This document shows, piece by piece, positions 3,328-59,364 of a stretch of DNA of 64,000 nt. A program made the position numbers and the translations under genes. Numbering within the stretch: the stretch's first letter is position 1; every line of letters starts with the position of its first letter. The DNA comes from Candidatus Shapirobacteria bacterium. GTDB taxonomy: Bacteria > Patescibacteriota > Microgenomatia > UBA12405 > BS750m-G30. Where the stretch lies: positions 107,467 through 171,466 of the forward strand of contig JBDRHA010000011.1 of NCBI GenBank assembly GCA_043817235.1, read 5' to 3'. The notes beneath the pieces are model-generated. The model saw only the letters and a list, made by a program, of their open reading frames with translations, made no database searches and had not been told where the DNA came from.

Positions 3328-3939
3328 ATGCAAATACAGACTTTTGTCTTAGGAGAACTGCAAACTAATTGCTACTTAGTTTTTGAGGAAACAGGCGAGG
3401 CGGCTGTGATTGATCCGGCAGATGAAGCAAATTTTATTTCCGAACAAATTTTAAAGCAAAATTTAAAACTTAAGCATATTATTGCCACCCATGGACATTT
3501 TGACCATATTTTAGCGGCCTGGGAATTAACTTTAGCTTTTGATCTGTCGTTATCACTTCATCCTAAAGATAAATTTATGGCTGATTATATGCAAAAATCA
3601 GCTCAATATTGGCTCAAAAGAAAAATAATTGAAAAGCCGCCGGAAAAAGTAAAAGATTTAAAAGAAAAATATATTCAATTCGGCCGGCAGAAATTAAAAG
3701 TTATTCTTACCCCCGGCCATACACCAGGAAGTATCTGTTTGTATTCCCCAAAAGAAAAAGTTCTTTTTACCGGCGATACTCTTTTTGCCGATGGAGTTGG
3801 CCGCACTGATTTGCCTTATGGTTCGGAAAAAAACCTATCTATTTCCTTAAAAAAATTAGCAAAGCTTCCTGAAAATACAAAAATTTACTCTGGGCATGGA
3901 CCGGCAGGCGCACTAAAAGACATCACACGCCGGGCGTGA
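3328..3939 (+). CDS. MBL-fold metallo-hydrolase (glyoxalase II-like)
   Basis: THGHFDHI metal-binding motif, later GH and D residues; 203 aa. Confidence 0.75.
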   Translation: MQIQTFVLGELQTNCYLVFEETGEAAVIDPADEANFISEQILKQNLKLKHIIATHGHFDHILAAWELTLAFDLSLSLHPKDKFMADYMQKSAQYWLKRKIIEKPPEKVKDLKEKYIQFGRQKLKVILTPGHTPGSICLYSPKEKVLFTGDTLFADGVGRTDLPYGSEKNLSISLKKLAKLPENTKIYSGHGPAGALKDITRRA

Positions 3940-4917: not shown

Positions 4918-6825
4918 CTAGTTAACTATTTCTCCTTCTTCCGCTTCCTTTTTTTCTTCGCCGTTTTTTGGCTCTTCCTTCGGCGCTTCTTCGCTTGGCG
5001 CTTCTGCTTGAGACTCTGCGCTTTGGGCAGCTTGATGTGCTTTAGAACCAATAGCCTGCATCAAAGAAGACAATTCTTGACTTTTATTTTCATAGTCTTC
5101 TTTACTTGTTTCTTCGTTGGCTAAAAATTCTTTACTTTCTTTAACCGCTTTTTCCAAATTTTCTTTGTCTTTTTCTTCCAGCTTATTTTTCATATCAGAA
5201 AGCATTTTTTCCGCCGCAAAAACAGTATTATCTAAAGTATTTTTAGATTCTACCTTAGCTTTTTTCTCTTCATCTTCAGAAGCGTGCTTTTCCGCTTCCT
5301 CCTTCATTTTTTCCACTTCTTTCTCAGATAAATTAGTGGCATTTTTAATACTAATTTGCTGTTCTTTGCCGGTTGCCTTATCTTGAGCCGAAACATTTAA
5401 AATGCCATTACTGTCAATGTCAAAAGTAACCTCAATCTGCGGCATGCCGCGCGGAGCCGGAGGAATCCCGTCTAAAATAAACCGGCCCAACGACTTGTTG
5501 TCGGCCGCCATTGGCCGCTCTCCCTGAAGAACATTAATTTCTACCTGAGTCTGGTTGTCTGCCGCTGTAGAAAAAACTTGTGACTTTTTTGTTGGCACGG
5601 TAGTATTGCGGTCAATCAAAGAAGTGCGCACTCCCCCTAAAGTTTCAATTCCCAAAGTTAAAGGGGTAACATCCAAAAGCAAGACATCTCGCACTTCTCC
5701 TCCCAAAACTGCGCCCTGAATAGCTGCTCCCACCGCTACCACCTCATCCGGATTAACCGATTTATTGGGCTCTTTGCCAAAATATTCAGAAACCAGTTTT
5801 TGAATTTTGGGCATACGAGTCTGGCCACCGACCAAAATTACCTCATCAATATCACTTGGCTTTAGCTTGGCATCTTTTAAACAAGCCTCCACCGGCTTCA
5901 TTGTTCGCTCAGTCAGATCTTGGGTCATCTGTTCTAGCTTAGAGCGAGTTAACTTTTTCTCTAAGTGCAGGGCCTTATTGTCCCGCTGAACCAAGAAAGG
6001 CAAGTTAATTTCTGCTTCCTGAACGGAAGAAAGTTCAATTTTCGCTTTTTCGGCTGCTTCTCTGATTCTTTGCATCGCCTGAAGATCTTTAGATAGATTA
6101 ATGCCTTCGGCTTTTTTAAACTCTTCTACCAGCCATTCCACAATTTTTTGGTCAAAATCATCGCCTCCCAAGAAAGTGTCACCGTTGGTTGCCTTTACTT
6201 CAAAAACGCCGTCGCCAATTTCCAGTATAGAGATATCAAAAGTCCCACCGCCTAAATCATAAACAGCGATCGTCTCGTTTTTCTTTTTATCTAGGCCATA
6301 TGCCAAGGAAGCGGCCGTTGGCTCATTAATAATTCGCTTGACGTCCAAACCAGCAATTTCTCCGGCTTGCTTGGTCGCTTGGCGCTGAGAGTCATCAAAA
6401 TAAGCGGGAACAGTAATTACCGCTTCCTTAACTTCTTCGCCCAAAAAAGCCTCGGCATCTGCTTTTGCTTTTTGCAAAATTTTGGCTGATATTTCTTGAG
6501 GCGTATAGGTTTTATCGCCTACCTTAACTGCCGCCATGTTGTCCTTGCCTGAAACAACCTCGTAAGGAACCATTTCCTGTGTCTTTTGAACTTCCTTATC
6601 TTTGTAGCGGCGACCCATTAATCTTTTTATTGAATAAATCGTACTTTTGGGATTTAAGATCATCTGGCGCTTGGCCAAATCTCCTACCAAACCTTTTACC
6701 GGCTCCACTACCGAAGGAATTAAGTTTCCGCCCTCGGCCGTGGGAACAACCTTTGGCTTCCCCGCCTCCATAATGGCCACACAAGAATTAGTCGTTCCTA
6801 AATCAATACCGATTATTTTGCCCAT
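4918..6825 (-). CDS. dnaK: molecular chaperone DnaK (Hsp70)
   Basis: [31 protein letters not shown] signatures; 635 aa with an acidic C-terminal tail. Confidence 0.95.
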
Positions 6826-7299: not shown

Positions 7300-8002
7300 A
7301 ATAATTTACTAAAGGAACCACTTCAGAATAGCGCTGGCGGGCCGGGCCCATTACCCCAATTATTCCCTTATATGGTCCAGTTTCGTATTCTTGGAAAATA
7401 AAACCGCAGGGTTCGAGCAGAGCTTCGCCCAGGTCATGACCAATAAGCAATCTTGCCTCGCCTTCGTCAATCGGCGAAGAAACAATAGAATCCATAATTT
7501 TCAGCCAATAATCAGACCGGTCAATAAGTTCCAAAGCCATTCGGGTCACATCAATATCCATAAATTCCGGTTCATCAAGAAGGTGAGCCATACCGGAAAA
7601 ATACATGCCGCCCTGGGAAGTGGCGCTTAAAGCCATTTTTCGCGATCGTTTTGAAAGCTCTTTAGTAGCTTCTTTTAGCAAAGAATCAAAATCATGCTTT
7701 TTTTCTAACACTTTTTCTTTTACTCCCACTTCTTCGGAAACAGAAAGTTTTTTGGGAGTCATTAGTTCCCGCACGTAATACTTTAAAGCCATGGAAGTAG
7801 GCATTCTGCCCGAAGAGGCGTGAGGCTTGCTTAGGTAGCCAATCTGGGCCATCTTGGCCATTTCATTTCTTAAAGTAGCCGGGCAAACACCAAAATTATA
7901 TTTCTTTTCCAGGCTTTCCGAGCCAACTGGCTCGGCTGTATCAATAAATTCTTCTACAATCGCTTTCAAAATATTGATTTGTCTTGGTGTTAAATCGGCC
8001 AT
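7268..8002 (-). CDS. hrcA: heat-inducible transcription repressor HrcA
   Basis: N-terminal winged-HTH pattern (RQINILKAIVEEF...PVGS), 244 aa, first gene of the operon with a CIRCE-like element upstream. Confidence 0.85.
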   Translation of the reverse strand: MADLTPRQINILKAIVEEFIDTAEPVGSESLEKKYNFGVCPATLRNEMAKMAQIGYLSKPHASSGRMPTSMALKYYVRELMTPKKLSVSEEVGVKEKVLEKKHDFDSLLKEATKELSKRSRKMALSATSQGGMYFSGMAHLLDEPEFMDIDVTRMALELIDRSDYWLKIMDSIVSSPIDEGEARLLIGHDLGEALLEPCGFIFQEYETGPYKGIIGVMGPARQRYSEVVPLVNYFADIISHIAR

Positions 8003-8003
8003 A

Positions 8004-8030
8004 TTAGCAAAAGATTAACACGACTGCTAA
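8004..8030 (-). promoter_or_regulatory. CIRCE-like inverted repeat (HrcA operator) overlapping the hrcA promoter
   Basis: TTAGCAAAA-N9-GACTGCTAA matches the TTAGCA-N15-TGCTAA frame of the CIRCE consensus TTAGCACTC-N9-GAGTGCTAA. A minus-strand TTGACA (-35) at 8035-8040 lies just upstream. Confidence 0.6.
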
Positions 8031-8036
8031 TTGCTG

Positions 8037-8330
8037 TCAAGGGGTAATTTTCATTAAAGCCCAGAAAAAAGAAGCAAAAAGAATAAATAGGATAATGCTT
8101 AGCTGTTTATACCAAATAAAAAGCCCTAAAGTTAAGGTTAAAGAAAGCCATAAAGAAAGTTTAAATCTTCCCCAAATTCCAAAAAATAAGAAAAAGAAAA
8201 ACAAGAAAAAGAAAAGAAAGAAAATTAAAATTTGCCACCAAAAATCAGGAGATATTTTAACAATCCAAAACACTAAGGAAATTAAAGAAAGCAAAGATAA
8301 AAATGAAAAAAGAATTTTTCTTTTGATCAC
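8037..8330 (-). CDS. hypothetical small hydrophobic protein (doubtful)
   Basis: 97-aa Phe/Leu-rich ORF lying on an A/G-rich low-complexity tract; may not be coding. Confidence 0.2.
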   Translation of the reverse strand: MIKRKILFSFLSLLSLISLVFWIVKISPDFWWQILIFFLFFFLFFFFLFFGIWGRFKLSLWLSLTLTLGLFIWYKQLSIILFILFASFFWALMKITP

Positions 8331-8375
8331 TGTTATTATTTAAGAAGAAAAAAAGAAGAAAAGCAAACTGCTCAA

Positions 8376-8430
8376 GGGAACCGGGGGCTTGTTTGTCAAA
8401 AATCGACAAAAACAAAGCCGCCCGGCTCCC
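8376..8430. repeat. 55-bp hairpin-forming repeat, copy 1 (identical to 9851-9905)
   Basis: GGGAACCGGGGGCTTGTTTGTCAAAAATCGACAAAAACAAAGCCGCCCGGCTCCC; internal imperfect palindrome GGCTTGTTTGTC...GACAAAAACAAAGCC; at the low-GC/high-GC boundary. Confidence 0.9.
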
Positions 8431-8453
8431 CTTGCACCTAAAAATGCTACAGC

Positions 8454-9638
8454 CTATTGACTATAGCATTTCTCCCAGGAATCCATGGCCCACATGGCGT
8501 CATCTCCGCCGCATGGTTTCCAGCCGTCTATCAGCTTCTCTGCATAGACATCCGCCATCGAGCGGGCCGCGGGATCAGCGGCAGGTGAGAACGGCGCTAA
8601 AGTAATCGCGCCTTCTGCCAAGCCATGATTCCACCTGAACCCTACGAAACCTCCCTCCAGAGTTTTCCGGACGGCCCAGGTGTATATGTCCGACCAATCG
8701 ATCACCACGCTGGTGAGAATGTGGTCGTTGGGCGCCACGCGCTCGGCCCAGTTGGAATCGTAGCCGATCACCCAGACATCGGTGTCCACCAGCGCCGTAC
8801 CGGCAGCCGTGCTGTCCTGGTGCACTGCCACCACTCTCGCCCCCTCTTCTTTGAGCGCCAGCGCCCCGGCGGTCTCGTCGCCTAAGTTCTCCCAATTGTT
8901 GATATACACAGTGGAAATGCTGACCGGCAGCCCTCCCCCCTTCTCAGCCCAAGTGTCGGCGAAGCAGGCGGCGCACGCCCCGTGGTTGGAGGCTACCTGA
9001 GGATTCTCCGCATAGGCGCCCAGCATGCCAAGCTCAGGCTCATCCACAATAGCCGCCGCGGCAGCGCAGGCCGCACAGAATCCTTCCCACGATTTCGGGT
9101 ACATGGACACCAGGTTCGTGGCCACCGGCCCGCGGATGCAAGCGAAATTCACGTCGGGGTGGCTTGGCGCCACGTTTTCCTGCAGATCTTGGCACCAGTT
9201 CTCGGCGGTGACAAAGACCAGCCTGGCGCCTTTGGAAATCATGTCCTCAGCCACACGTGAAGCTTCTGTGGCGCTAAAATCCGTAGTCGCCGTCCAGGAA
9301 AGGGTGTTGACTACCACCTTACCTGTGCCATCCACAACTCTAAAGCCTTCCCCGTCCTCTTCCACCTGCATACCCTGGGATGGATCGTAGACAGCTTCCA
9401 AGGCCTGCCGCAGACCCTCCCGGTGCGCGGCCGACCAAGGGATCTGAACCGGCGAGATGTAGATCATTCCGATAGTAGTCAGATCCACAGTCTCTGCTGC
9501 ATCCGTAGGTTGCGACTGCGGCTGGGCGGTTAGCTGCACTGGCGGCGCTACTAGCGGAGCCGTGCACGCGCTGAAGACGCAGGACAGGGTGAACAAGAAA
9601 AACGTTGCGGCAAGGGCCACCAGGTGAACGCGTTTCAT
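8454..9638 (-). CDS. BMP-family (PnrA-like) ABC-transporter substrate-binding lipoprotein, probable nucleoside binding
   Basis: High-GC gene. RBS AAAGGAG plus ATG at 9638, giving MKRVHLVALAATFFLFTLSC with a lipobox; BMP-family motifs. The ORF-track start at 9728 is probably too far upstream. Confidence 0.65.
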   Translation of the reverse strand: MKRVHLVALAATFFLFTLSCVFSACTAPLVAPPVQLTAQPQSQPTDAAETVDLTTIGMIYISPVQIPWSAAHREGLRQALEAVYDPSQGMQVEEDGEGFRVVDGTGKVVVNTLSWTATTDFSATEASRVAEDMISKGARLVFVTAENWCQDLQENVAPSHPDVNFACIRGPVATNLVSMYPKSWEGFCAACAAAAAIVDEPELGMLGAYAENPQVASNHGACAACFADTWAEKGGGLPVSISTVYINNWENLGDETAGALALKEEGARVVAVHQDSTAAGTALVDTDVWVIGYDSNWAERVAPNDHILTSVVIDWSDIYTWAVRKTLEGGFVGFRWNHGLAEGAITLAPFSPAADPAARSMADVYAEKLIDGWKPCGGDDAMWAMDSWEKCYSQ

Positions 9639-9850
9639 CTTGTGTTCTCCTTTTCTTTTTTTTTGAGTACTCGGGACAACAACGCCGGCTTGCCAAGCCT
9701 TTAGGCAATTCCTCCTTTTAAGGTGCATAAAAAAAGAAAGGTTTTTTAGGGAAATCGCAATTGACTTCCCCTTGCCTTTCTTTTAATTCCTCTGTTTTTG
9801 AGAAACAAAAGAAATCCTATTATTATATACTAAGACTCATTTTACTTCTC

Positions 9851-9905
9851 GGGAACCGGGGGCTTGTTTGTCAAAAATCGACAAAAACAAAGCCGCCCGG
9901 CTCCC
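9851..9905. repeat. 55-bp hairpin-forming repeat, copy 2
   Basis: Perfect 55/55 identity with 8376-8430; lies between the two BMP genes. Confidence 0.9.
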
Positions 9906-9929
9906 AAAAGCACCTTAATCTGAAGGCTA

Positions 9930-11023
9930 CTACGGAGCGCCCACCACCCCCTCTACGAACCAACTCATGGAAAGCATGTCAGCGTCGCTCATGCACTGGC
10001 CGGAAGCGATTGCTAGAGCACCGTCCTGGCTATTGATAGGACCGCAGAAGACGTCCCACTCGCCACTGAGGATGACCTGCTCGCGCTCTTCCACCAGGTC
10101 CGCCACATCGACCGGCACACGCTCGCTCAGATCAGCCAGGGCCACGATGCCATCATTCATGCTGCCCCAGTACTGGTGCGTCTCCCAACTTCCATCGAGC
10201 ACGGCCTGCACCTGCCGCACGTAGTAGGGACCCCAATTCCACATGGGGCTGGTCAACACCGTGTCGCCCACGAACTCACGCATATCCGAGTCGTAGCCGA
10301 TGCTCAAGGCCCCGCGGTCGGCGGCGGCCTTCTGGGGTTCGGTGGTGTCCTGATGTTGAGCGATGATGTCAGCGCCCACATCGAGCAGCCCTTCGGCGGC
10401 TTCCTTCTCCAGGACCGGGTCGAACCAGGTGTTGGTCCAGACCACGCGCACCTCGGCTTCGGGATTGGCCTCGCGCACACCCAGGGTGAAAGCGTTGATG
10501 CCGCGCACAACCTCAGGGATGGGGAAGGCGGCGACATAGCCAATGATGTTGGAATGGGTCATGCGGCCAGCCACCAGACCAGAGAGGTAGCGGGGCTGGT
10601 ACATACGGCAAAGTAAGTAGCGGCGTTGTCCAGCGTCTTGTAGCCGGAGCAGTGCATGAAGACCACGTTGGGGTACTCGGCGGCGACGTTGACCGTCGGG
10701 TCCATGAACCCAAACGAGGTGGTGAAAATGACGTCGTAGCCTCGTTGGGCGAAGTCGCGGATGACCCGTTCGGCATCCGGGCCTTCGGGCACGTTTTCGA
10801 TGTAGGTGGTTTCGACTTGATCGCCGAAGGTTGCTTCGACCTGCAGTCGACCTTGCTCGTGGGCCCAGGTCCAGCCGAGGTCACCGATAGGGGCGACGTA
10901 GACGAAGGCTACTCTGAGAACCTCCGCCTCAGGGGCAGGAGCCGCGGGCTGAGCCACTGGCGGCGCGCAACCAACTATCAACGCTAGAATCACGACAACT
11001 AGCAAAGCCAAATTCTTCTTCAT
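9930..11023 (-). pseudogene. BMP-family substrate-binding lipoprotein gene split by a frameshift near 10600-10660
   Basis: N-terminal piece 10559-11023 (MKKNLALLVVVILALIVGC lipobox, RBS CTCCTT at 11032) and C-terminal piece 9930-10604 are in different frames. The concatenation reads as one BMP protein (...KTLDNAATYFA / RMYQPRYLSGLVAGRM...). Confidence 0.55.
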
Positions 11024-11095
11024 CTTTCTTCTCCTTAAGAATTATTGAGATGAGACAGAGGTGCGATGTTCTGCACCTCTGTCTTTGCGAAACTC

Positions 11096-13033
11096 CTACC
11101 GCACGACCTCCCTGCATTCCCCGGTGGTCACGTTGACGAATCCGGAGGGGCAGTCCTCGAAGGGAGCCACGAGCACCCACTTCCAAGGCTGGCAGGTCAG
11201 GGTTTGGAACCGTGCCGATTCGGCACTTTGGAGCGCGGCTGAACTATATGCCGGGCTCTCCACTGGCAGGTAGGAGAGCCATTCCAGTCCGGCGGCGGAC
11301 TCCCAGAAAGCCTCGAAATCCTCGGCTACCTCATGCGCGGGTCGCGACGACATGAGCCCGCCGATCTCCAACTGGACATAGTCCACTACCTCGCCACCCG
11401 AGACCAGGACATAGCCGCCGTTGATGGAGGCCAGGTAGTTGACGGCCTGAGCCATGGCCTCGTCGCTGGTGCCCATCACCTGGACGTTGTGATTATCGTG
11501 CGCCTCGCTCAGGGCGAAGGCCGTATCCGGCGTGGCCGGACCGACGTCGCGCCAGAACATGCAGGCCACCGGATCTGCTAGCGCATTGTAGCGGTCGACG
11601 ATGCAGAACTTGCTGACCTTGTTGGCGACGTCGCGCTGGACCGCTCCGTCTACCACCGGCAGCTCGACTTCTGGGTAGGTGGGAGCGAAGTAGAACTGGC
11701 TTAAGACGGCGGCCATGGCCGTATTGCCTTCTGCCGCCACCACGAAATCGTCTGCCGTCACCTCGCGGCCGATGTTGATGGTGTCTTGCGCCCATTCTGG
11801 CCAGTCGACGGTCGGAATCTCGTAGACCAACTGGCCATCCACGCCGACGAGCTTGCCGGAGGCCCAGACTCTGTTGATATCGACGGTCTCCGGGTTGCGC
11901 AAGAGCACGACATGGGCATACCGCCCGGGGGCGATGGAGCCCACCAGGTGCTCGAGATGCCAGTGACGTGCGGCCGTATAGGAGGCCGAGGCGTAGGCTG
12001 CCTCTACAGGGACGCCCAGCTGGATCGCCGTCCTGGTGTTGTAGTCCATGGTCCCCAGCTCCAGAGCCTCGTCCACGCTTCGGTCGTCCGTGGTCCAGGA
12101 CATGTTGGACCAGTCCTTCAGCCCCATCTTGATAAGGTAAGGAATGACCTTTCCCATGGAGCCTGTCCTGATTTGAATGAAGACCCCGTGGCGAAGCTTG
12201 TCCAAGACTTCGGCGCCTTCGCGAATCTCGTGATCGGATGACAGCCCGGCGGCTGCGAAGGCATTGATCTCATCGTAGGTGAACATGCGGCTGCCGTGGC
12301 CCTCGATCACCCCGTCTGCATCCCAGGTGGCTTGTAAGGCCTGCCACATGCGTTCGTATCCGGGCATCTCTGGGTTCCACACCGATGGCCAGTCCATGAC
12401 CTCGCCCAGTCCAATCACCCAGGGGTGGCTGTTCATGAGCTCCGTGACCGCATCGTAGTCGTAGTAACCCCCGGTGAACTCGAACGGCGTCGGCGGGATG
12501 GCCGAGCCTAGCTGTGGGAAAATGGTTAGTGGGCTGCCATTCTGGTGGGGAAGCAGCCACAATTCGGCGTTGTGGTCGCCATCCACGTTGCCAAACTCGT
12601 GCGATGCTTCTGCGATCCAGGTTGTCCCCTGCGGCAGAACCACTTCGGCTTCGCGGTCCGGCGAAAGATGGCTGGACTCGATGTGCTTGTGGGGTTCGCC
12701 GAACCCCGGCACCGCGTAGAGGCCGTAGGCGTCCACCGTTTCCGCGGCCGTTCCCGACCAGGCGCCGCGGGGACCCACCCAGGCAATCCGCTCGCCTTTG
12801 ATGACGATGTCCTGGCTGGGCATCCAGGTTAGGGTGTGGACGTCGAGGACCGTTGCACCGGAAATGATCAGGTCTGCTTCGGCCCTGCCCAGAGCGACCA
12901 GCACCAGCTCCTGGCGGACCTTCACTTCATCCGATGGGAAGTCTTGCCGGTCGAAGTCGGCTGCGGCAGGCAATGCCCCTGTCACAAGCAGTGCTGCCAA
13001 CAGCATTACACTTAGCAATGCTTTGTGTTTCAC
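11096..13033 (-). CDS. adenine deaminase family amidohydrolase with an N-terminal Sec signal peptide
   Basis: ISGATVLDVHT and PGFGEPHKHIESS and GLGEVMDWP match adenine deaminase motifs. The likely start is GTG at 13031-13033 preceded by AAGGAG, giving MKHKALLSVMLLAALLVTGALPAAADF. Confidence 0.6.
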   Translation of the reverse strand: MKHKALLSVMLLAALLVTGALPAAADFDRQDFPSDEVKVRQELVLVALGRAEADLIISGATVLDVHTLTWMPSQDIVIKGERIAWVGPRGAWSGTAAETVDAYGLYAVPGFGEPHKHIESSHLSPDREAEVVLPQGTTWIAEASHEFGNVDGDHNAELWLLPHQNGSPLTIFPQLGSAIPPTPFEFTGGYYDYDAVTELMNSHPWVIGLGEVMDWPSVWNPEMPGYERMWQALQATWDADGVIEGHGSRMFTYDEINAFAAAGLSSDHEIREGAEVLDKLRHGVFIQIRTGSMGKVIPYLIKMGLKDWSNMSWTTDDRSVDEALELGTMDYNTRTAIQLGVPVEAAYASASYTAARHWHLEHLVGSIAPGRYAHVVLLRNPETVDINRVWASGKLVGVDGQLVYEIPTVDWPEWAQDTINIGREVTADDFVVAAEGNTAMAAVLSQFYFAPTYPEVELPVVDGAVQRDVANKVSKFCIVDRYNALADPVACMFWRDVGPATPDTAFALSEAHDNHNVQVMGTSDEAMAQAVNYLASINGGYVLVSGGEVVDYVQLEIGGLMSSRPAHEVAEDFEAFWESAAGLEWLSYLPVESPAYSSAALQSAESARFQTLTCQPWKWVLVAPFEDCPSGFVNVTTGECREVVR

Positions 13034-13500
13034 GTTAATCTCCTTGTTGGTTGGTATATGGTGAATCGCGGTGTTGGCCAAGAACGCTTGGCGTTAACGC
13101 TGTCCTCTGCCTTCATCTGGTTGACTGCCAGATTAAGACAGTTCTTGCTTTTTTAAAAGCAAGACGAATATAGGAACAGCAGGAAGAAAAAACCACTAAA
13201 AATATTAATCTAATAATCTTTTTTTCCCGCTGTTCCTTTAGCCTTCAAATTGTTAAGGTGCTTTAAAAAAGTTCAGAGAAAAGCGCTTGAAAAAATCGCT
13301 TTTGATTTTTTTAGCTTTTTTCTCCAGTTTCCCTTTTTGGAAACAAAAAAACCCGGGATATATTTATCCCAGGTTCAGATTTTTTCCAAAACACAAAAAC
13401 GGTATTTGGTATGTGGCGCCCTGTTTCATTTATTTTATCTCCGGCAGGCCTTTGAGATACTATATTGTTTAAGCAAATATAGCTTTTTTCTAAAAGCTCG

Positions 13501-14061
13501 TCAAGACTCAGATTTGAAAATCGGCAAAGAAACTAGATATTCAAACGGCTCAAGTTCTTCAAATAATTTTTCTCCTTGTTTGACAATCGCCCCAAAAACG
13601 ACTATATCTGCTTCACACTTTTCCATTAATTTTTTCATCATTCGCATGGTCACACCGGTAGAAATAACATCGTCCACGATGGCTACTTTTTTTCCTTTGA
13701 TTAAATCCCGATCTAAGCCGTCAATTACTAGAGGCTTAACGTGTTTAGGAAAATGCGGCAAGGGTTTTAAAACCAAAGGATTAATCATATGCGGCTTGCG
13801 GCTTTTGCGGCAAATAACATAATGCTTATGGTTAAAAATGTTAGCCAGCTGATCAATTAAAGGTACTACTTTTACTTCCGGCCCCACTAGATAATCAAAA
13901 TCATATTTTTTTAGTTTCTTATAAAGCGCTTTGGCCGTCGCTCTAATCAGCAAAACATCTCCGGAAATGTTCAAACTGGCAATTTTAGTGTTCTTGCCAA
14001 TTCCGATTAAGGGCAATTTTCTTTGTAAACCGCAGATTGCAAGATCATAAAAATCTCTCAC
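13501..14061 (-). CDS. type I phosphoribosyltransferase (purine PRTase-like)
   Basis: PRPP-binding motif KVAIVDDVISTGVTM; 186 aa; low-GC native gene right beside the high-GC island. Confidence 0.6.
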   Translation of the reverse strand: MRDFYDLAICGLQRKLPLIGIGKNTKIASLNISGDVLLIRATAKALYKKLKKYDFDYLVGPEVKVVPLIDQLANIFNHKHYVICRKSRKPHMINPLVLKPLPHFPKHVKPLVIDGLDRDLIKGKKVAIVDDVISTGVTMRMMKKLMEKCEADIVVFGAIVKQGEKLFEELEPFEYLVSLPIFKSES

Positions 14062-14098
14062 CTAAAAGTATAACTTATTTTCTATAGTATAATAAAGA

Positions 14099-15124
14099 AT
14101 GACTCCTTGGATTCCAGTGATTATCGTGGTAATTAGTCTTGTTGGCGTAGGAATTTATATTGAAAGAAAATTTAAAAACTTAAGCTCCCAGGTTAAGCCA
14201 GACGAAACTTTAATAGAATGGCTCAAAAGCCAGCAACAAGATTGGCAAAAATCCCAGCAAGATTTTAATCAGACTTTGCGCTCTACCAACCAAAATATTC
14301 AGCAGGTTTTAACTGCCAGCACCCAATCTTTAAATAAAAGACTAGATAACGCAGCCCAATATATGTCTCAAGTAGCCAAAGAAGTCGGCCAAATGAGCGA
14401 AATTGGAAGGTCAATGAAGCAGCTCCAGGAATTCTTGCAAAGCCCAAAACTCCGAGGGAATATTGGCGAGGAAGTTTTAAAAGACTTAATTGGCCAAATG
14501 TTTCCAAAAAACAGCTTTCACTTGCAATATCAATTTAAAACCGGAGACAAAGTTGACGCCGCCCTAAACACCGAAGCCGGAATTTTGCCCATAGATTCTA
14601 AGTTTCCTATGGAAAACTTCCGCAAGTCTACTTCTGCCGAAAACAAAATAGAAAGAGCAAAATTCAAAAAAATATTCGCCTCGGACGTGAAAAAACATAT
14701 CAAGGCTGTTGCCAAAAAATATGTTCTTCCGGAAGAAGGAACTTTAGATTTTGCCCTGATGTATGTGCCTTCGGAAGCTGTTTATTATGAAGTAGTGAAT
14801 GAACCAGAAATAATAGAATTTGCCCGAAAGCTAAGAATTTATATAGTTTCCCCCAGTACCTTATATGCCGTTTTGCAAACTATTTTACTTTCTTTTGAAG
14901 GAAAGAGAATTGAGCAAGAAGCAAGGCAAGTTTTTCGCTTATTGCGCGCTATTCAGCAGGATTATCAGAAAACCGAAACGGAAATGTCGGTTCTTGGAAA
15001 ACATATTGGCAATGCTTACTCGAAAATGAACGAGGTCTTCCAAAGATTTTCTTTGCTGGGCCAAAAAATCAGCAGCGCTACTCAGCTTCCCCAAACAAAA
15101 GAAACCAAAAAGATTAAGAGCTGA
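14099..15124 (+). CDS. rmuC: DNA recombination protein RmuC
   Basis: N-terminal TM, Gln-rich coiled coil, C-terminal LKDLIGQMFPKNSFHLQYQFKTGDKVDAAL...LPIDSKFPMENF typical of RmuC. Confidence 0.7.
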   Translation: MTPWIPVIIVVISLVGVGIYIERKFKNLSSQVKPDETLIEWLKSQQQDWQKSQQDFNQTLRSTNQNIQQVLTASTQSLNKRLDNAAQYMSQVAKEVGQMSEIGRSMKQLQEFLQSPKLRGNIGEEVLKDLIGQMFPKNSFHLQYQFKTGDKVDAALNTEAGILPIDSKFPMENFRKSTSAENKIERAKFKKIFASDVKKHIKAVAKKYVLPEEGTLDFALMYVPSEAVYYEVVNEPEIIEFARKLRIYIVSPSTLYAVLQTILLSFEGKRIEQEARQVFRLLRAIQQDYQKTETEMSVLGKHIGNAYSKMNEVFQRFSLLGQKISSATQLPQTKETKKIKS

Positions 15125-15139
15125 TGATAAAATTAGCTG

Positions 15140-18100
15140 ATGACAATTAAGTTAAACCCTACCCAGAAAGAGGCGGTCAAACATGAAAAAGGCCCGCTTT
15201 TGATTATTGCCGGAGCCGGAACTGGAAAAACAACAGTAATTACCGAGCGAATCAAATGGCTTATTACCAAAAAAAACATTCTTCCTTCTCAAATCCTAGC
15301 TCTTACTTTTACTAATAAAGCCGCTTTGGAAATGGAAGAGAGGGTGGACTTAGCTTTACCCCTGGGCTATTCTAATATGTGGATTTCTACTTTTCATTCT
15401 TTTGGCGATAGAGTGTTGCGAGATGAGGCAGTGCATATCGGTCTTGATCCGAATTTTAAGCTCCTCTCCCAAGCCGAATCTCTGCTTTTTTTGCGAAAAA
15501 ATTTATTTAAGCTAAAACTAAATTACTTTAGGCCGGCCACTAACCCGACCAAGTTTTTAGACGCCTTACTTACCCATTTTGCCCGGCTGGCAGATGAATA
15601 CATCAGCCCTCAAGAATATTTAAATTTTGCCCAAAAACAAAAAGATAAAGCCGACACCAAGGAAGAGAAACTGGAAGCAAAAAAAAGCTTGGAGCTGGCT
15701 AATTGTTTTGCCCAATGCCAAATCTTGAAAGAAAAAAACGGATTTATGGACTTTAGTGACCTGATCAGCAACACCTTAGCTTTATTTAATAAGAGGCCAA
15801 ATATTTTGCGAAATTATCAGGAAAAATTTAAGCATGTTTTGGTGGACGAATTTCAAGATACAAATATTGCCCAAAACGAACTAATCAGTTTGCTTACCCT
15901 AAAGAAAGGAAATATTACAGTGGTAGCTGACGATGACCAATGTTTACCTGCCAATACTCTCATCGAAACCCCACAGGGACGAAAAAATATCAAAAATATT
16001 AAGACAGGAGATATGGTAATAACAGGCGTTGGTAAAGGCTATGTTTCTGCTAAAAAAGTAACTAAAAAATTTACTTCTAAAAAAACAGCAGACTTTCTGT
16101 CAGTAACAATGGAATGTGGAAAAAACCTAACATTAACAGCAAATCATCTAGTCTTCTGCTATACTCCACGTTTTTATACTAACAAAAAATGGTATTACAT
16201 CTATCTAATGGAAAATAAAGATTTGGGCTGGCGATTAGGAGTAACTCATGATCTTGTCCAAAGGCTTAAGTTGGAAAGAAGCGCGGATAGGATTATTGCG
16301 ATTAAAGCCTGTAAAACTAATCAGGAAGCTCATTATTGGGAATCTTACTATTCATTAAAATATAAAATACCTACCGTTTGCTTTAAAGAAAGAGGAAATC
16401 TTATCGCCGGCGAATGGCTTAAAAAGCTTTATTCGGCAATTGACAGCAAAAAGGGAGCAATTAATTTAGCAAATGATCTTCAAATTGAACTTAGCAGACA
16501 TCATTATTGCCTAGATGCAGTGAATCGAGGAAGCAAGAAAAGAACGAAAGTAAATCTCTATTTATGCCTGAGAAAACATCGAATTAAGAAACATTTAAAA
16601 AATAATATTCTCATCAATCCCAAGATAGTTCATCAAGTCGGAATCACCACCTCAAATAAAAGAGTCATTAATATTGTCAGATCTTTAGGACTAGATATGA
16701 CGAAAGGCAAAAAGAACACCAAAGCCTTTAGAAAGCAGTTTAGCTCCTTCATTGAAGCCGGAAAATTTGCGCGATATCTTGCAGACAGCACTAAGGCAAT
16801 TTTGGACATTAAAACTGCAATCGCAACTAAAAACGGTATTTCTAAACAAGCAAGAGTTATGCCTGCAAGCAATCTCGTCGAGGGCATATATTTACCCATA
16901 TTAAAAAATAATAATATTGTTTACGACGAAATCGTCGCAATCTCTAGAAAAAGAAAAACACAAACTGTTTATGATTTAGAGATAGAAGACAGCCATAATT
17001 TCATCGCCAATCAAATCGTTGTTCATAATTCTATTTATAAGTGGCGCGGAGCAGCAATTTCCAATGTGCTTCAATTTAAAAAGAATTTTCCAAAAACTAA
17101 GATAATTACCCTTAATCAAAACTATCGCTCTACTCAGGAAATTTTAGATCGCGCTTATCAGCTCATCCAGAACAATAACCCGGACCGGCTGGAAGTTAAA
17201 GAAAGAATCAATAAAAAACTCAAAGCAGTTCGCCCAATTAAAGGAAAACCAATAGAACTTATTTTTACTCCCAGAGCAGAGCAGGAGGCAGAAGAGGTGG
17301 CTATAAGAATTAAAAAACTAGTTAGCCGGAAATATGAGCCAAGAGATGTTGCTATTTTAGTCAGAGCCAACAGCCAAGCCGAATCTTTTACTCGCGCCCT
17401 TTCCCGTAACAATATTCCCTATCAATTTTTAGGCCCAGGCCAGCTTTTTCGCCAGCCGGAAATTAAAAACTTGATTTCTTATCTTAAGATTCTTACTAAT
17501 CCGGAAGATAATGTAGCCCTTTTTCGCTTAAGCAATTTGCCTGTTTTTAAAATCTGGGCACGCGATTTAGCTTTTAGCAATAGCTTTGCTAAAAAGAATA
17601 ACCTATCCCTTTTTGAAGCCTTTGAAAAAATTAGTCAAAAAAAGAAAAAAAATGAGGAATTAAATCTCCCTTCATTTGCCAAGGTTAGCCAGAACGGAAT
17701 AAAAAAATTGGTCAAAATAGTTTATCGCCATTGGAAACTTGTTTCCAAAGAGTCGGGCGGCCAGCTGCTTTACTATTTTTTAGAACAAACCAAGCTCTTA
17801 GAACAGTATTTAAAACCGGAAACAGAAAATCAACAGCTGGCCGCCCTAAATATTGCCAAATTTTTCGATAAAATAAAAAGCTTTGAAGCTCAAAATAAGG
17901 AAACCCTAGCAGGGGATTTATTAGACTGGATTACCCTAAGAATGGAAATGGGAGAAAGCCCGCAGGCCTCAGAAATTGATTGGACAAACTATAATGCTGT
18001 AAATATTATCACTATTCACTCGGCCAAAGGCCTTGAGTTTCCGATTGTCTTTCTGGTTAACCTGGTCAACCGCCGCTTTCCCACTGATAAAAGAAGGGAA

Positions 18101-19147
18101 GCTATTCCCATCCCCCAGCCACTAATCAAGGAAATCCTACCTAAGGGAGATTACCACCTACAAGAAGAGCGCCGGCTTTTTTATGTCGGGCTTACCCGAG
18201 CCAAAGACCAAGTCTTTTTAACTGCTGCCAAAGTGTATCCAGAAAGAAAGCTGGAAAAGAAACTTTCAATTTTTGTGAACGAAACCCTAGGCGATCAAAA
18301 AGAAAGGTCAATATTAAACGAGAAAAGCTCATCCTTAGCCGAATGGGAAAAAGAAAAGCAAGTGGAAAAAGCACCTGTTCTAAATCCACCCGTGAGCTTT
18401 CTTTCCTATTCTCAAATTGATGCTTTTGACATTTGTCCCCGGCAATATCAATATAAATACGCCCTAAGAATAACTACTCCCCCTTCGGCTACCCAAACCT
18501 TTGGCAGTATCGTCCACCAAACCTTAAAAGCTTTCTGCCAAAAACAAATTGCCGCAAACCACAAGCTTAAGCAGGAAGAATTATTAAAATTACTTTCCCA
18601 AAGCTGGATTTCCCGGGGATTTAAAAGCAAACTGGAAGAAAAAAAAGCCAAGCAAAATGCGGCTAAGATGTTAAAAAATTACTATCAAAAGGGCTTTAAT
18701 TATCAAAACGTAGACCAGGTTATGGCCCTAGAACAGTCCTTTAATTTTAAAATCACACCCGGTTTAAAAATTGGGGGGATTATTGACCGAGTAGACAATT
18801 TGAAAAACAATCAAATAGAAATTATTGATTATAAAACAGGAGCCAGAATACCCAAGCAAAAAGACGTTGACGGAAACGACCAGCTTACTCTTTATGCTTT
18901 AGCGGCCAGCTCGCTTAAAGATCTAAGCTTTTATCGGCCCTTAAACAAAATTATTCTTTCTCTATATTTTTTGGATCAAGGGAAAAAACTAAGCAGTAAG
19001 CGCACACCCAGCCAAATTGGTAAATTTAAGGAAAAAATAATTAACCTGGCTAAAGAACTGGAAAAAACCAACTTCCCTTCCCAGCCGAACACGCCTTTTC
19101 CTTGTGATTTCTGTGAATACAAGCTTCTTTGCGACGCCTGGCACTAA
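15140..19147 (+). CDS. UvrD-family helicase fused to a C-terminal Cas4/AddB-like PD-(D/E)xK FeS nuclease; intein-interrupted
   Basis: Walker A AGAGTGKTT, motif II VLVDEFQDTN, motif III split as VVADDDQ/.../SIYKWRGA. C-terminus has DICPRQY...IDYKTG...CDFCEYKLLC (Cas4-like nuclease with a 4-Cys cluster). Confidence 0.8.
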   Translation: MTIKLNPTQKEAVKHEKGPLLIIAGAGTGKTTVITERIKWLITKKNILPSQILALTFTNKAALEMEERVDLALPLGYSNMWISTFHSFGDRVLRDEAVHIGLDPNFKLLSQAESLLFLRKNLFKLKLNYFRPATNPTKFLDALLTHFARLADEYISPQEYLNFAQKQKDKADTKEEKLEAKKSLELANCFAQCQILKEKNGFMDFSDLISNTLALFNKRPNILRNYQEKFKHVLVDEFQDTNIAQNELISLLTLKKGNITVVADDDQCLPANTLIETPQGRKNIKNIKTGDMVITGVGKGYVSAKKVTKKFTSKKTADFLSVTMECGKNLTLTANHLVFCYTPRFYTNKKWYYIYLMENKDLGWRLGVTHDLVQRLKLERSADRIIAIKACKTNQEAHYWESYYSLKYKIPTVCFKERGNLIAGEWLKKLYSAIDSKKGAINLANDLQIELSRHHYCLDAVNRGSKKRTKVNLYLCLRKHRIKKHLKNNILINPKIVHQVGITTSNKRVINIVRSLGLDMTKGKKNTKAFRKQFSSFIEAGKFARYLADSTKAILDIKTAIATKNGISKQARVMPASNLVEGIYLPILKNNNIVYDEIVAISRKRKTQTVYDLEIEDSHNFIANQIVVHNSIYKWRGAAISNVLQFKKNFPKTKIITLNQNYRSTQEILDRAYQLIQNNNPDRLEVKERINKKLKAVRPIKGKPIELIFTPRAEQEAEEVAIRIKKLVSRKYEPRDVAILVRANSQAESFTRALSRNNIPYQFLGPGQLFRQPEIKNLISYLKILTNPEDNVALFRLSNLPVFKIWARDLAFSNSFAKKNNLSLFEAFEKISQKKKKNEELNLPSFAKVSQNGIKKLVKIVYRHWKLVSKESGGQLLYYFLEQTKLLEQYLKPETENQQLAALNIAKFFDKIKSFEAQNKETLAGDLLDWITLRMEMGESPQASEIDWTNYNAVNIITIHSAKGLEFPIVFLVNLVNRRFPTDKRREAIPIPQPLIKEILPKGDYHLQEERRLFYVGLTRAKDQVFLTAAKVYPERKLEKKLSIFVNETLGDQKERSILNEKSSSLAEWEKEKQVEKAPVLNPPVSFLSYSQIDAFDICPRQYQYKYALRITTPPSATQTFGSIVHQTLKAFCQKQIAANHKLKQEELLKLLSQSWISRGFKSKLEEKKAKQNAAKMLKNYYQKGFNYQNVDQVMALEQSFNFKITPGLKIGGIIDRVDNLKNNQIEIIDYKTGARIPKQKDVDGNDQLTLYALAASSLKDLSFYRPLNKIILSLYFLDQGKKLSSKRTPSQIGKFKEKIINLAKELEKTNFPSQPNTPFPCDFCEYKLLCDAWH
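15941..17029 (+). mobile_element. intein (363 aa) inserted in helicase motif III
   Basis: Starts with Cys (CLPANTLIETPQGRKNIKNIKTGDMV, block A) right after DDDQ. Ends ...VYDLEIEDSHNFIANQIVVHN followed by Ser (block G, HN+S). The host motif SIYKWRGA resumes in frame. Confidence 0.75.
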
Positions 19148-19935
19148 ATTGATGCCCCAGAATATCTTTTTAACGAAAAGTTCCAAAATTTATGGGAGAG
19201 CCAAAGGGAGAGAATCGCAAAAACAAAAATATAGAGTATCCAATTCCAGGAAAATATTTTTAAGAGCACCCGGGCAGGAGTAGTCACAATAGCCACTACC
19301 GGAAAAAATATCCATAAAAAATAACCAATCAATCCGTAATAGATATTACCTGGCTTATCAGCAAAATCAATAAGATGAGTAAAAAGATGATTGGCATTGG
19401 ATAAGCGATCAGTATAAAAAGTCATACAAACAATCATAAACCAAAGACTGTAGCAAACAATAACTCCCCCTGCTAATAAAGCGATAAAAATGAAAACCTG
19501 ACCAAGAGATACGGATAAGCCCTGTCGCATCAGTCCAGTTACTATTAAGATAGGAGAAAATAGGAGTCCAGAAAGAGAATTATTTAAGTTAAATCGATTT
19601 ATTGAGGCCAAAAACTGGGAAGAAACAGGCTTAAGCAAGATTAGATCAAGCTGGCCCTTATTAATCATTCTGATTAGCTCGCCAAAATTGGAATAAAAAG
19701 CACTGTATAAAACTGATTGAATCAAATTATGAACGCCTAATAAGACTAATACTTGATTGATATTCCAACCCCCAACAAGATTTGTATGGCCATAGAGAAT
19801 GTCAAAAAATATTAGGGTAACAAGAAGCCAGCCTAAATTAACTAAAGTCCAGACAAAAAAATTAGAGCGATATCCCATTTCTCTGGCTAAATTAATCTTA
19901 AAATAGTGTAAAAATAGTTTTATAAATCGCTTCAT
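19144..19935 (-). CDS. ABC-2 family transporter permease
   Basis: Six-TM protein with the INKGQLDLILLKPVSSQFL motif typical of ABC2_membrane_6 permeases. Confidence 0.55.
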   Translation of the reverse strand: MKRFIKLFLHYFKINLAREMGYRSNFFVWTLVNLGWLLVTLIFFDILYGHTNLVGGWNINQVLVLLGVHNLIQSVLYSAFYSNFGELIRMINKGQLDLILLKPVSSQFLASINRFNLNNSLSGLLFSPILIVTGLMRQGLSVSLGQVFIFIALLAGGVIVCYSLWFMIVCMTFYTDRLSNANHLFTHLIDFADKPGNIYYGLIGYFLWIFFPVVAIVTTPARVLLKIFSWNWILYIFVFAILSLWLSHKFWNFSLKRYSGASI

Positions 19936-19967
19936 TTTTTTTTATATTCCTACCCCAGAAAATTTCT

Positions 19968-20723
19968 TCAGTCCCCTTTTCCATAGAAAAAAAGCCAAAA
20001 AACAACTCCCATAAGTTCGGCTCGACAATTTTTAAGTTCTCCAGTTAAGATTTGAATAGGAACATAAATTAAATACTTAAAAGGTAAGAAACCGGCAAGG
20101 GCTTGCATTTTTTGGGGCATGATAAATAAGGGGAACATTTGGCCGGAGAACAAAGCTCCCGTCCACCAACGCAGATTAATAAGGCTGGTTGCTTCTTGAA
20201 GCCAAAAAGCAAAAGCGCTGGTAATAAAATTTATCATTACCGATAGGCAAAAACCTAAAAAAACAAAAATCAGATATAGGGGCAAATTTTTGAAGCTTAC
20301 TTGAGAAAGCGGCATAAAACCGGAAATAAGGAACAAGACCAGAACTGAAAATAAAAAAGCCAAAGGATTGCGAATTAACTTATAAGACAGTTCTTCTATA
20401 GAAAAACGAGTAAAAATACTTATCGGCTTCGTTAGTTGGCTTGCCAATTCGCCATCTTTGATATAGTTAATCAGCCAAGTATCAAAATGCGCTCCTGTCG
20501 CGCTGTCCGTAAAAATCATAATAAAATAATAAGTTACCATTTGAGCTAAGCTTATTCCTGCTATTGAGGTCTTATTCTGATAAATAGCTTGCCAAACAAA
20601 AATAACAGAGAGCACAGGAATGGAATCCATAATTACCCATAAAAAAGCTTCTGTTCTGTAAGTAACAGCATCTTGCCAGCCAATAACCAAATAAGCCCAG
20701 GCTTTACGAAGCTCTTTTAACAT
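19968..20723 (-). CDS. ABC-2 family transporter permease (paralogous partner)
   Basis: Multi-TM protein of similar architecture, adjacent to the other permease; no ATPase gene in the window. Confidence 0.5.
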   Translation of the reverse strand: MLKELRKAWAYLVIGWQDAVTYRTEAFLWVIMDSIPVLSVIFVWQAIYQNKTSIAGISLAQMVTYYFIMIFTDSATGAHFDTWLINYIKDGELASQLTKPISIFTRFSIEELSYKLIRNPLAFLFSVLVLFLISGFMPLSQVSFKNLPLYLIFVFLGFCLSVMINFITSAFAFWLQEATSLINLRWWTGALFSGQMFPLFIMPQKMQALAGFLPFKYLIYVPIQILTGELKNCRAELMGVVFWLFFYGKGD

Positions 20724-59185: not shown

Positions 59186-59218
59186 TGATGAATATATTTT
59201 ACCCTAATTTTGCGAAGC

Positions 59219-59364
59219 AAAAAAATCGCGCGCCTTCTTCCTAAAAAAGCGAGGGCTAGGGGCCCGAGCTTAATCACTGTTCGGGGAGGTTCGGATTTGT
59301 TGGTAAAGATCCACCATTTCCAATATGCTCTCTGACTCGGGCGGATTTTGGGCCGCACCCGCAA
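59219..59364. repeat. modular intergenic element, copy C (modules 1+2, partial 3)
   Basis: AAAATCGCGCGCC...AAAAAAGCGAGGGCTAGGGGCCCGAGCTTAATCACTGTTCGGGGAGGTTCGGATTTGTTGGTAAAGATCCACCA...GGGCCGCACCCGCAA. Confidence 0.8.

Follow-up and report, generated by a model that had tools for sequence, protein, structure and literature searches.

A horizontally acquired block of three genes, probably for capturing purine bases outside the cell, beside a native phosphoribosyltransferase gene in a Candidatus Shapirobacteria chromosome

How does a bacterium of the candidate phyla radiation (CPR, or Patescibacteria) come by its purines? Purine acquisition in this group is still poorly understood, and a locus in the genome of a Candidatus Shapirobacteria bacterium raises the question in a concrete form. 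We analysed 64,000 nucleotides of contig JBDRHA010000011.1 (assembly GCA_043817235.1, positions 107,467 to 171,466 of the forward strand), called the window below. A block of GC-rich DNA at 8431-13135 of the window encodes an adenine-deaminase-family amidohydrolase (Ade) and two proteins of the basic membrane protein (BMP) family, Bmp1 and Bmp2, next to a low-GC gene for a phosphoribosyltransferase (PRT). The composition of the block identifies it as foreign DNA, and we argue that it is probably a horizontally acquired three-gene module that captures purine bases outside the cell, lodged beside the native PRT gene in the Shapirobacteria chromosome.

Composition and gene content of the GC-rich block

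What sets the block apart from its surroundings? The island genes and the neighbouring PRT gene are listed here, with GC given as a fraction of the open reading frame (ORF) and GC3 as the fraction at third codon positions.

8454..9638, minus strand: Bmp1, predicted exported BMP-family protein of 394 aa, from a rare Cys-rich subfamily; GC 0.59, GC3 0.68
9930..11023, minus strand: Bmp2, BMP lipoprotein gene split into ORFs 11023->10559 and 10604->9930; GC 0.60-0.63, GC3 0.72-0.79
11096..13033, minus strand: Ade-family amidohydrolase, 645 aa, GTG start at 13033; GC 0.62, GC3 0.78
13501..14061, minus strand: PRT (PF00156; NF005592 at 164.6 bits vs a cut-off of 143); GC 0.36-0.37

The block is 4.7 kb long and about 60-62% GC in a genome of 38% GC. 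In 1-kb segments the GC fraction is 0.54-0.62 across 9001-13000, and 0.61-0.62 across 10001-13000, against 0.33-0.45 in nearly all of the other 59 kb. At a resolution of 150 nt it climbs from 0.27-0.41 to 0.51-0.69 between ~8400 and ~8475 and returns to the low level between ~13050 and ~13200, in agreement with the jump to ~60% GC at ~8430 and the drop near 13100 that an initial annotation of this DNA had described. The extent given there, 8376-13140, does cover the GC-rich DNA, but at position 8376 a 55-nt repeat begins, not the GC-rich DNA itself. The three genes lie on one strand, as that annotation had stated, and their codon usage is as GC3-rich as claimed: the four ORF pieces reach 0.68, 0.79, 0.72 and 0.78, compared with 0.349±0.041 in the 42 other ORFs of the window (z=8-10). 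GC at first and second codon positions is elevated too, so that the protein composition is foreign as well. The tetranucleotide distance between 8431-13135 and the rest of the window gives z=10.2 against the spread of all other 4.7-kb segments, and the Pearson correlation of tetranucleotide frequencies with the rest of the window is -0.23 for the block and at least 0.72 for every other segment of that size. The block is thus an outlier in GC, GC3 and tetranucleotide usage alike. The spacers inside it, at 9643-9929 and 11024-11095, have host-like or intermediate GC.

Translation signals provide a second line of evidence. AAGGAG precedes the start codon by 6-8 nt in all three island genes (6 nt upstream of the Ade GTG, 8 nt before the Bmp1 ATG) and in only 1 of ~40 native genes, dnaK, which bears out the earlier remark that these ribosome-binding sites differ from those of the neighbours. 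Among native genes, 12 of 37 have a -10-like hexamer, TANA[AT]T, ending 3-12 nt before the start, with 1.5±1.2 expected at random; examples of such native start-codon contexts are found at 14099, 26842, 41512 and 61024. The lack of a Shine-Dalgarno (SD) motif together with the hexamer suggests that leaderless mRNAs are common in this genome. Set against the mostly SD-less native genes, the AAGGAG motifs and long leaders of the island are an independent mark of foreign origin. A horizontal origin of the block is well supported.

The PRT gene is a native, functionally linked neighbour that lies outside the foreign DNA. The low-GC gene reported initially at 13501-14061 is indeed a PRT by both profiles and belongs to the PRK07322 subfamily, whose name at NCBI is 'adenine PRT'.

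Predicted functions of the three proteins

What might the foreign proteins do? Ade matches Adenine_deam_C (E=6.5e-29; 101 bits vs a cut-off of 27) and Amidohydro_1/3, so the earlier call of an adenine-deaminase-family amidohydrolase with a GTG start stands. Its nearest solved structure is the Agrobacterium adenine deaminase Atu4426 (3nqb; E=5.6e-57 over residues 38-586), and in the alignment to it Ade keeps the motifs HxH, Glu, His, Asp-His and Asp-Asp. H115, H117, E211, H246, D267/H268 and D316/D317 are invariant in an alignment of nine subfamily members. As in the amidohydrolase superfamily generally, we take the HxH, the bridging Glu, the His, the Asp-His and the Asp to be ligands of a binuclear metal centre. 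The substrate is inferred to be adenine or a close 6-aminopurine; genes for nucleoside hydrolase, xanthine/uracil permease and NUP proteins are found in the context of Ade relatives.

What distinguishes Ade is its predicted location. It begins with a typical Sec-type N-terminus, MKHKALLSVMLLAALLVTGALPAAADF, and its signal peptide, MKHKALLSVMLLAALLVTGALPAAA, ends before DF. A signal-like hydrophobic N-terminus occurs in all 11 homologues retrieved (in the L001 protein P0002 it is found upstream of the annotated start), which points to an exported subfamily, and a Cys-containing C-terminal tail is also common to Ade and these homologues. Given the signal peptide, any deamination would take place outside the cytoplasm and would not be a cytoplasmic step feeding the PRT. 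A relative 58% identical to window Ade is encoded on a phage-like contig (L006, 5127-8911; JGI Ga0452209_019910), where genes for DpdA, the exported-type Ade-family protein and a dCTP deaminase follow one another, a hint that phages, too, employ the subfamily in connection with nucleotides or DNA modification. A pattern scan of IMG/VR, with patterns derived from the alignments, found no Ade or BMP relatives that would mark a phage vector.

The two pieces of Bmp2 match PF02608 with E=3e-17 and 9e-34 (62.9 and 117.2 bits; cut-off 24.1). Comparison with the intact orthologue in L001, a contig from a distantly related Patescibacterium described below, locates the frameshift to a single missing G at ~10609, so the frameshift noted initially in the second BMP gene is a 1-nt deletion. 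A programmed frameshift was ruled out by inspection: the site reads TAC TTT GCC and has no slippery heptamer. The signal sequence, MKKNLALLVVVILALIVGC, contains the lipobox LIVGC, in which IVGC fits [LVI][ASTVI][GAS]C by eye.

Once the frame is repaired, Bmp2 aligns over its full length with the Brucella BMP protein 3s99 (E=2.6e-105) and with AtzT (E=1.9e-100). AtzT holds its ligand with Tyr45, Ser97, Phe98, Glu165, Trp194, Asn218 and Asn220; it binds guanine with a dissociation constant of 110 nM and adenine with one of 2.5 uM, and adenine has been modelled into the site of 3s99 (PMC6834077). We defined the pocket of a purine-base binder in this family by two sandwiching aromatics, Ser-Phe, Glu, and His/Asn plus Asp/Asn. 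In Bmp2 the residues at the ligand positions of AtzT are W/SF/E/W/H/D, identical to 3s99. The protein is thus most readily understood as binding purine bases rather than nucleosides, with an adenine-type ligand predicted from these residues. The PnrA-type nucleoside binding assumed initially is not borne out for Bmp2.

Bmp1 is a divergent member of the family (PF02608, E=1.5e-10, 41 bits against the same cut-off of 24.1), with a 27-aa insert and conserved cysteines. Compared with the AtzT/3s99 pocket, four of six positions are kept (W, W, H, D), Ser is replaced by Ala and Glu by Gln, and A-E stands where the base binders have S-F; the purine-base pattern is thus only partly present. The signal region, MKRVHLVALAATFFLFTLSC.. 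/ ..FSAC; ..FLFTLSCVFSAC, holds two lipobox candidates that are imperfect by eye, TLSC and FSAC, which would make Bmp1 a probable lipoprotein; some proteins of its type have a plain signal peptide in place of the lipobox. The subfamily is very small and sharply delimited: in an exhaustive HMMER search, four of 1.84 billion representatives reached E<=1e-30, and a gap to E ~1e-27 followed. The window protein and its relatives (P0242-P0251) share the signatures TAENWCQD, CIRGP and NPQVASNHGACA.

Put together, these predictions suggest how the module could work. Outside the membrane, the deaminase would act on adenine, or on a close 6-aminopurine, and yield hypoxanthine and ammonia. Free purine bases would be bound at the cell surface by the BMP proteins and handed over to a transporter, and the imported base could then be turned into a nucleotide by the neighbouring PRT in the cytoplasm.

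Origin and role of the block

Where did these genes come from? All three are also found in a distantly related Patescibacteria lineage, represented by three metagenome-assembled genomes (L001, L002 and L003; contigs of GCA_018814125.1, GCA_018825565.1 and JAHKAQ01), with PRT, DnaJ, NusA and IF2 genes as neighbours. A PRK07322-type PRT gene stands beside the set in L001 and L002; L003 is a 4-kb contig that ends within Ade. Between the window and L001, the island proteins are 87% (Ade, P0002), 81-86% (Bmp2) and 74% (Bmp1) identical, whereas the host proteins DnaJ and PRT reach only 36% and 45%. A third lineage, L009/L013, shows the reverse: its host genes are close to those of L001 and its Ade is very different, with 75% identity between the PRTs of L001 and L009 against 40% for Ade and 56-59% for the BMP proteins. 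The PRT homologue flanking the set in L009 is 43% identical to the window PRT, and in L009/L013, too, GC-rich island genes (GC3 0.66-0.79) adjoin low-GC genes for IMPDH and PRT. Identities of island and host genes are thus discordant, which decouples island similarity from host relatedness. Together with the composition, this discordance upholds the initial proposal of a horizontal acquisition by a low-GC, reduced genome, here one of CPR type.

Synonymous divergence (dS) between window and L001 is about 1.0-1.3 for the island genes and saturated for PRT. The ratio of nonsynonymous to synonymous divergence (dN/dS) is 0.06-0.16: the island genes are under purifying selection and have been functional for most of the divergence time. 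Gene order differs, being Ade-Bmp2-Bmp1 on one strand in the window and Bmp2-Ade, with Bmp1 on the opposite strand, in L001. The window copy has a higher GC3 than the L001 copy, although its host has the lower GC, so it does not descend from an L001-like ameliorated copy; its slight amelioration indicates a fairly recent arrival.

Beyond the CPR, the genes lead to different places. The nearest relatives of Bmp2 are proteins of Anaerolineae/Chloroflexota (65-76% identity), and the Chloroflexota-type genes open Bmp-ATPase-permease-permease operons (L007, L008, L020). Ade, outside the contigs described here, is closest (55-64%) to metagenome proteins and to proteins of Planctomycetota, Verrucomicrobiota and Gammaproteobacteria, encoded next to the nucleoside hydrolase, xanthine/uracil permease or NUP genes mentioned above or next to a ureide permease gene. 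The closest non-CPR kin are thus in Chloroflexota/Anaerolineae for Bmp2 and in PVC (Planctomycetota-Verrucomicrobiota-Chlamydiota) and gammaproteobacterial lineages for Ade. Relatives of Bmp1 appear only in similar salvage clusters, namely L009 and L010, the latter with thymidine kinase, CTP synthase, GMP synthase and PRT genes. Since the nearest relatives outside the CPR differ in lineage from gene to gene, and another Patescibacterium has the closest relatives of all three, the set is a mosaic and not one donor fragment.

This bears directly on the origin favoured initially: a single contiguous fragment from one high-GC donor, possibly a host cell, that brought a complete cytoplasmic route from adenine via hypoxanthine to inosine monophosphate (IMP). 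The uniformly high GC of all three genes and the identity of Bmp2 to Anaerolineae/Chloroflexota proteins speak for it, as does L008, a Chloroflexota-like contig in which the Bmp2 relative adjoins an adenine deaminase gene. That deaminase, however, is of the canonical cytoplasmic type and about 33% identical to window Ade, and no named Chloroflexota protein is among the top 120 Ade hits. Furthermore, Bmp1 has no relative in a non-CPR context, the best relatives of all three genes belong to another Patescibacterium, the internal spacers are host-like in GC and repeated, and the deaminase carries an export signal. We consider such a single donor unlikely. Another Patescibacterium, or an unsampled element, is the more likely immediate source than a single host genome. 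The Chloroflexota affinity of Bmp2 is a lead to possible partner organisms and no proof of one.

As to ultimate origins, Bmp2 was probably the substrate-binding gene of a Chloroflexota-type BMP operon for an ATP-binding cassette (ABC) importer, acquired without its ATPase and permeases. The deaminase is a member of an exported subfamily common in Planctomycetota, Verrucomicrobiota and Gammaproteobacteria, and Bmp1 of a tiny subfamily so far seen only in similar salvage clusters. The gene set would now be moving between Patescibacteria.

Several observations weigh against a working purine-capture module. Bmp2 appears to be inactivated in this genome by its frameshift, which may mean that part of the module is decaying or that the assembly contains an error. 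Near-identical strains, which could bear on the frameshift or show an empty site, did not turn up: exact look-ups of the Ade, P0001 and HrcA proteins had no record, a scan of genome contigs yielded one partial Patescibacteria contig, and a first scan of metagenomes yielded nothing. Ade scores 274.5 bits against TIGR01178 'ade' (E=1.6e-81), below the curated cut-off of 472.5, and 222.4 bits against PRK10027, below 768, and so is a relative of adenine deaminase rather than an equivalog; a literature search returned no paper describing a characterised member of the exported subfamily. No ATPase or permease of a BMP-type importer, sought as a double ABC_tran ATPase with two BPD_transp_2 permeases, is present among the scanned ORFs of the window, and tblastn with the ATPase and permeases of L020 gave no hit in the window, L001-3, L009, L010 or L013. 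The complete route from adenine to IMP is consequently not shown. Purine-scavenging proteins do stand beside a native PRT, as described initially, but for a PRT of the 'adenine PRT' subfamily the step from hypoxanthine to IMP is putative. As for origin, no sampled genome outside the Patescibacteria-type contigs has all three genes together, and the taxonomy of L009 and L010 was inferred only from gene content and PRT similarity.

Could the foreign genes then serve something other than nucleotide salvage? Ammonia release as a nitrogen source, removal of adenine-type signals or a role of the BMP proteins as sensors or adhesins come to mind, as does a decaying, non-functional module. The missing transporter partner, in the window and in the related CPR loci, and the frameshift in Bmp2 would fit, and so would the non-CPR relatives of exported Ade, whose genes cluster with those of purine catabolism or uptake, a ureide permease gene included. 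Yet purifying selection on the genes is strong, and their linkage to genes for PRT, IMPDH, uracil phosphoribosyltransferase, thymidine kinase and CTP/GMP synthase recurs in L001, L009 and L010. Moreover, the host group is reported to lack nucleotide biosynthesis (PMC12455944). These facts make a role outside salvage rather improbable, and purine capture at the cell surface remains our preferred reading.

The recurrence of a cluster of PRT, BMP, Ade and Bmp1-type genes in at least three Patescibacteria-type lineages, and the restriction of the Bmp1 subfamily so far to such contexts, could instead reflect an ancient, vertically inherited Patescibacteria cluster whose GC is kept high by something other than recent transfer. 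This is very improbable. Island and host identities contradict each other in both directions (87% vs 36-45% in one pair, 40% vs 75% in another), island dS is about 1 where host genes are saturated, a GC3 of 0.68-0.79 would have ameliorated in a genome with a GC3 of 0.35, and it is the lower-GC host, that of the window, that has the higher-GC copy. An assembly artefact, in which DNA of a high-GC organism was wrongly fused with a low-GC contig, would suit the abrupt change in composition and the metagenomic source of the genome, but such a chimera is very unlikely and hardly credible: it needs two false joins to place 4.7 kb inside a 336-kb contig, and both flanks are parts of that one low-GC contig; GC resembles that of the host in the spacer 9643-9929 and in part of 13140-13264; the perfect 55-nt repeat links the interior of the island to the low-GC DNA at its outer edge, with one copy in each; and the same genes lie in a Patescibacteria context in GCA_018814125.1, GCA_018825565.1 and JAHKAQ01.

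The block is a clear instance of salvage capacity extended by gene transfer, though not the first of its kind. The locus presents one concrete solution to the purine problem: a borrowed, surface-exposed set of proteins, kept under purifying selection and common to very remote members of the phylum. Three questions follow. How can a cell employ a substrate-binding protein whose own ABC permease was not co-acquired? What is the role of an adenine deaminase outside the cell? And how are SD-dependent foreign genes expressed where native genes are mostly without SD motifs?

Genomic setting, repeats and known systems

How are the foreign genes embedded in the chromosome? Ade and Bmp1 each have a 100% identical counterpart in a Candidatus Shapirobacteria metagenome-assembled genome, on a contig of 336,659 bp, and the surrounding genes are typical of CPR: hrcA-grpE-dnaK-dnaJ, rmuC, an intein-containing AddA-like helicase, MurJ and PMT_2 glycosyltransferases. 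The helicase gene (15140-19147, plus strand) encodes a UvrD/AddA-type helicase-nuclease (UvrD-helicase, UvrD_C, PDDEXK_1) with the intein (Intein_splicing/Hint) at ~aa 263-630. Two ABC-2 membrane proteins (19144-20723) have no detectable adjoining ATPase gene, as tblastn with the duplicated ABC ATPase of L020 gave no hit in the window at E<=1e-3. A second, smaller GC bump, of about 0.50 vs 0.35, is found at 59200-60400, where ORFs overlap on both strands; Pfam and Rfam scans of this region gave no match, and the ORF at 59864-60400 (minus strand) resembles a membrane protein. The bump may be another foreign piece or an unrecognised RNA.

The block itself is laced with repeats and hairpins, listed here with the other features between the genes.

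8376..8430, minus strand: probable terminator at the low-GC outer edge: first copy of an imperfect 55-nt hairpin, 23 nt downstream of the Bmp1 stop, with a T-rich tract behind it
8434..8442, minus strand: TTTAGGTGC, which differs by one mismatch from the boundary 9-mer TTAAGGTGC and lies between hairpin copy 1 and the Bmp1 stop
9639..9929, minus strand: low-GC spacer (about 37-44% GC) with the Bmp1 leader, GCACCTTAA at 9726->9718, and hairpin copy 2
9851..9905, minus strand: second copy of the 55-nt hairpin, identical to 8376-8430 and in direct orientation to it, 24 nt downstream of the Bmp2 stop
9907..9918, no strand: AAAGCACCTTAA, left arm of the perfect 12-nt inverted repeat on either side of the Ade+Bmp2 module
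11054..11083, minus strand: 11-bp hairpin in the 72-nt Ade-Bmp2 spacer (-28.1 kcal/mol, z=-4.4), followed by AAGGAG and the Bmp2 ATG
13034..13264, minus strand: Ade leader of ~230 nt, low-GC from ~13140 upward, with hairpins at 13169-13240 and ~13143-13164
13349..13376, minus strand: intrinsic-terminator-like hairpin and T-run after PRT, separating PRT transcription from the island

The 55-nt repeat has only these two copies in the window at up to 3 mismatches. They flank the Bmp1 segment as direct repeats 1475 bp apart, and the fold of copy 1, in a context of 101 nt, has an energy of -46.8 kcal/mol (z=-5.3). Of the 9-mer TTAAGGTGC, the window has three exact copies against about 0.5 expected, every one of them at a module border, and the one-mismatch copy marks a fourth border. 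The right arm of the inverted repeat is TTAAGGTGCTTT, at 13253-13264; its halves, if joined, would give a 20-nt palindrome, AAAGCACCTT followed by AAGGTGCTTT. No other copies of the boundary repeats were found elsewhere in the window. About 75 nt upstream of Bmp1 are weakly similar to the region upstream of Ade, where the leader folds with z=-6.8. At the gathering threshold, Rfam detected only a tRNA-Ile in the whole window and no known riboswitch; a permissive scan of 8000-14200 returned only generic, miRNA-like hairpin matches, and scans of L001 and L009 only a tRNA. As to hallmarks of mobility, no recombinase or integrase was found among the scanned ORFs of the window, its only tRNA is at 54441, and the repeats bracket sub-modules and not the whole island.

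The related loci are built in a similar manner: in L001 and L009 the foreign ORFs are framed by repeated low-GC leaders, and in L001 also by repeated terminator hairpins. A 56-nt leader with 86-93% conservation precedes genes for Bmp2-type proteins and Ade in L001 (6733-6788 and 8223-8278), L009 (7217-7272, minus strand) and L013 (~3360-3425), which represent two Patescibacteria-type lineages. It consists of ACAGAACAATATT, a 5-bp stem with the loop NGCCGA and two covarying pairs, and AAAAGCTTATGCT..ATAAATTGGCAAA, followed by an intrinsic terminator. The leader had no match in Rfam and none in the window by blastn-short, and a pattern scan of metagenomes recovered the L009 organism again (L013) plus chance matches in coding regions. 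With three distinct copies only, it is a candidate cis-regulatory RNA. L001 also has, upstream of its PRT gene, a small GC-rich ORF (5531-5922) with a signal-like N-terminus that was not called as a gene; it lies between a leader copy (5277-5390) and a terminator hairpin copy (5975-6033) and may be a fourth cassette-like unit.

These repeats and leaders, at two copies per genome, would suit a native regulatory scaffold in which cassettes were inserted or duplicated. A bolder idea, which we regard as improbable, is that the PRT-side locus in Patescibacteria is a native 'docking scaffold' of repeated low-GC leaders and terminator hairpins (in the window, the 55-nt hairpin and the split 20-nt palindrome), into which single foreign ORFs for exported purine proteins are repeatedly inserted, swapped and reshuffled as cassettes without a recognisable integrase, and whose conserved leaders, such as the 56-nt element of L001 and L009, are purine-responsive regulatory RNAs. 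If this were true, genome-reduced symbionts would keep sampling GC-rich xenologues from their neighbours, and, with cassette insertion, the empty site would read AAAGCACCTTAAGGTGCTTT beside one hairpin copy.

Such an arrangement calls integrons to mind. As in integron cassettes, both modules have the imperfect 55-nt hairpin at their end, and the Bmp1 segment sits between direct hairpin copies, as expected from the integration of a small circle. Unlike integron cassettes, the modules have long leaders and only two hairpin copies, with no integrase found in 64 kb and no attC R/L cores recognised. We rejected an integron on these grounds: no tyrosine recombinase was found among the scanned ORFs of the window, and inspection of the 55-nt hairpin by eye revealed no GTTRRRY-type cores.

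Finally, we would place the three proteins beside their best-known counterparts. Ade has the same two-domain architecture, amidohydrolase plus Adenine_deam_C, as the adenine deaminases represented by Atu4426 (3nqb) and TIGR01178/PRK10027, to which it adds the N-terminal signal peptide and the conserved Cys-containing C-terminal tail; it scores well below the equivalog cut-offs, and its subfamily appears to be uncharacterised. Bmp2 aligns end to end with 3s99, the Brucella melitensis 'basic membrane lipoprotein', and with AtzT of Pseudomonas sp. ADP (6pi5), but it differs from them as an orphan that lacks a nearby ABC partner, lies in foreign DNA and is frameshifted, and as a protein predicted to be lipid-anchored in a cell with probably a single membrane. 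In purine-auxotrophic spirochaetes, BmpA-D of Borrelia burgdorferi and PnrA of Treponema pallidum are BMP surface lipoproteins in nucleotide salvage (PMC7093131, PMC13325309). The likeness lies in BMP lipoproteins that serve salvage in a reduced, purine-dependent genome, whereas the spirochaete proteins bind nucleosides and are encoded by native genes, and the Bmp2 pocket is of the free-base type, predicted from a recently acquired gene.

The closest parallel at the level of the genome comes from the Patescibacteria themselves. Horizontal gene transfer shapes their metabolism, including nucleotide genes, and the foreign genes can be detected by composition (mSystems 2025, PMC12455944). Like those islands, the block described here holds foreign nucleotide-metabolism genes in an ultra-small Patescibacterium and stands out by its composition. 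That study mentions no purine, adenine or substrate-binding genes, whereas here all products are predicted to be exported; and, unlike the cases reported there, this block has close copies in a distant Patescibacterium and consists of foreign ORFs framed by native-looking, repeated leaders and terminators.

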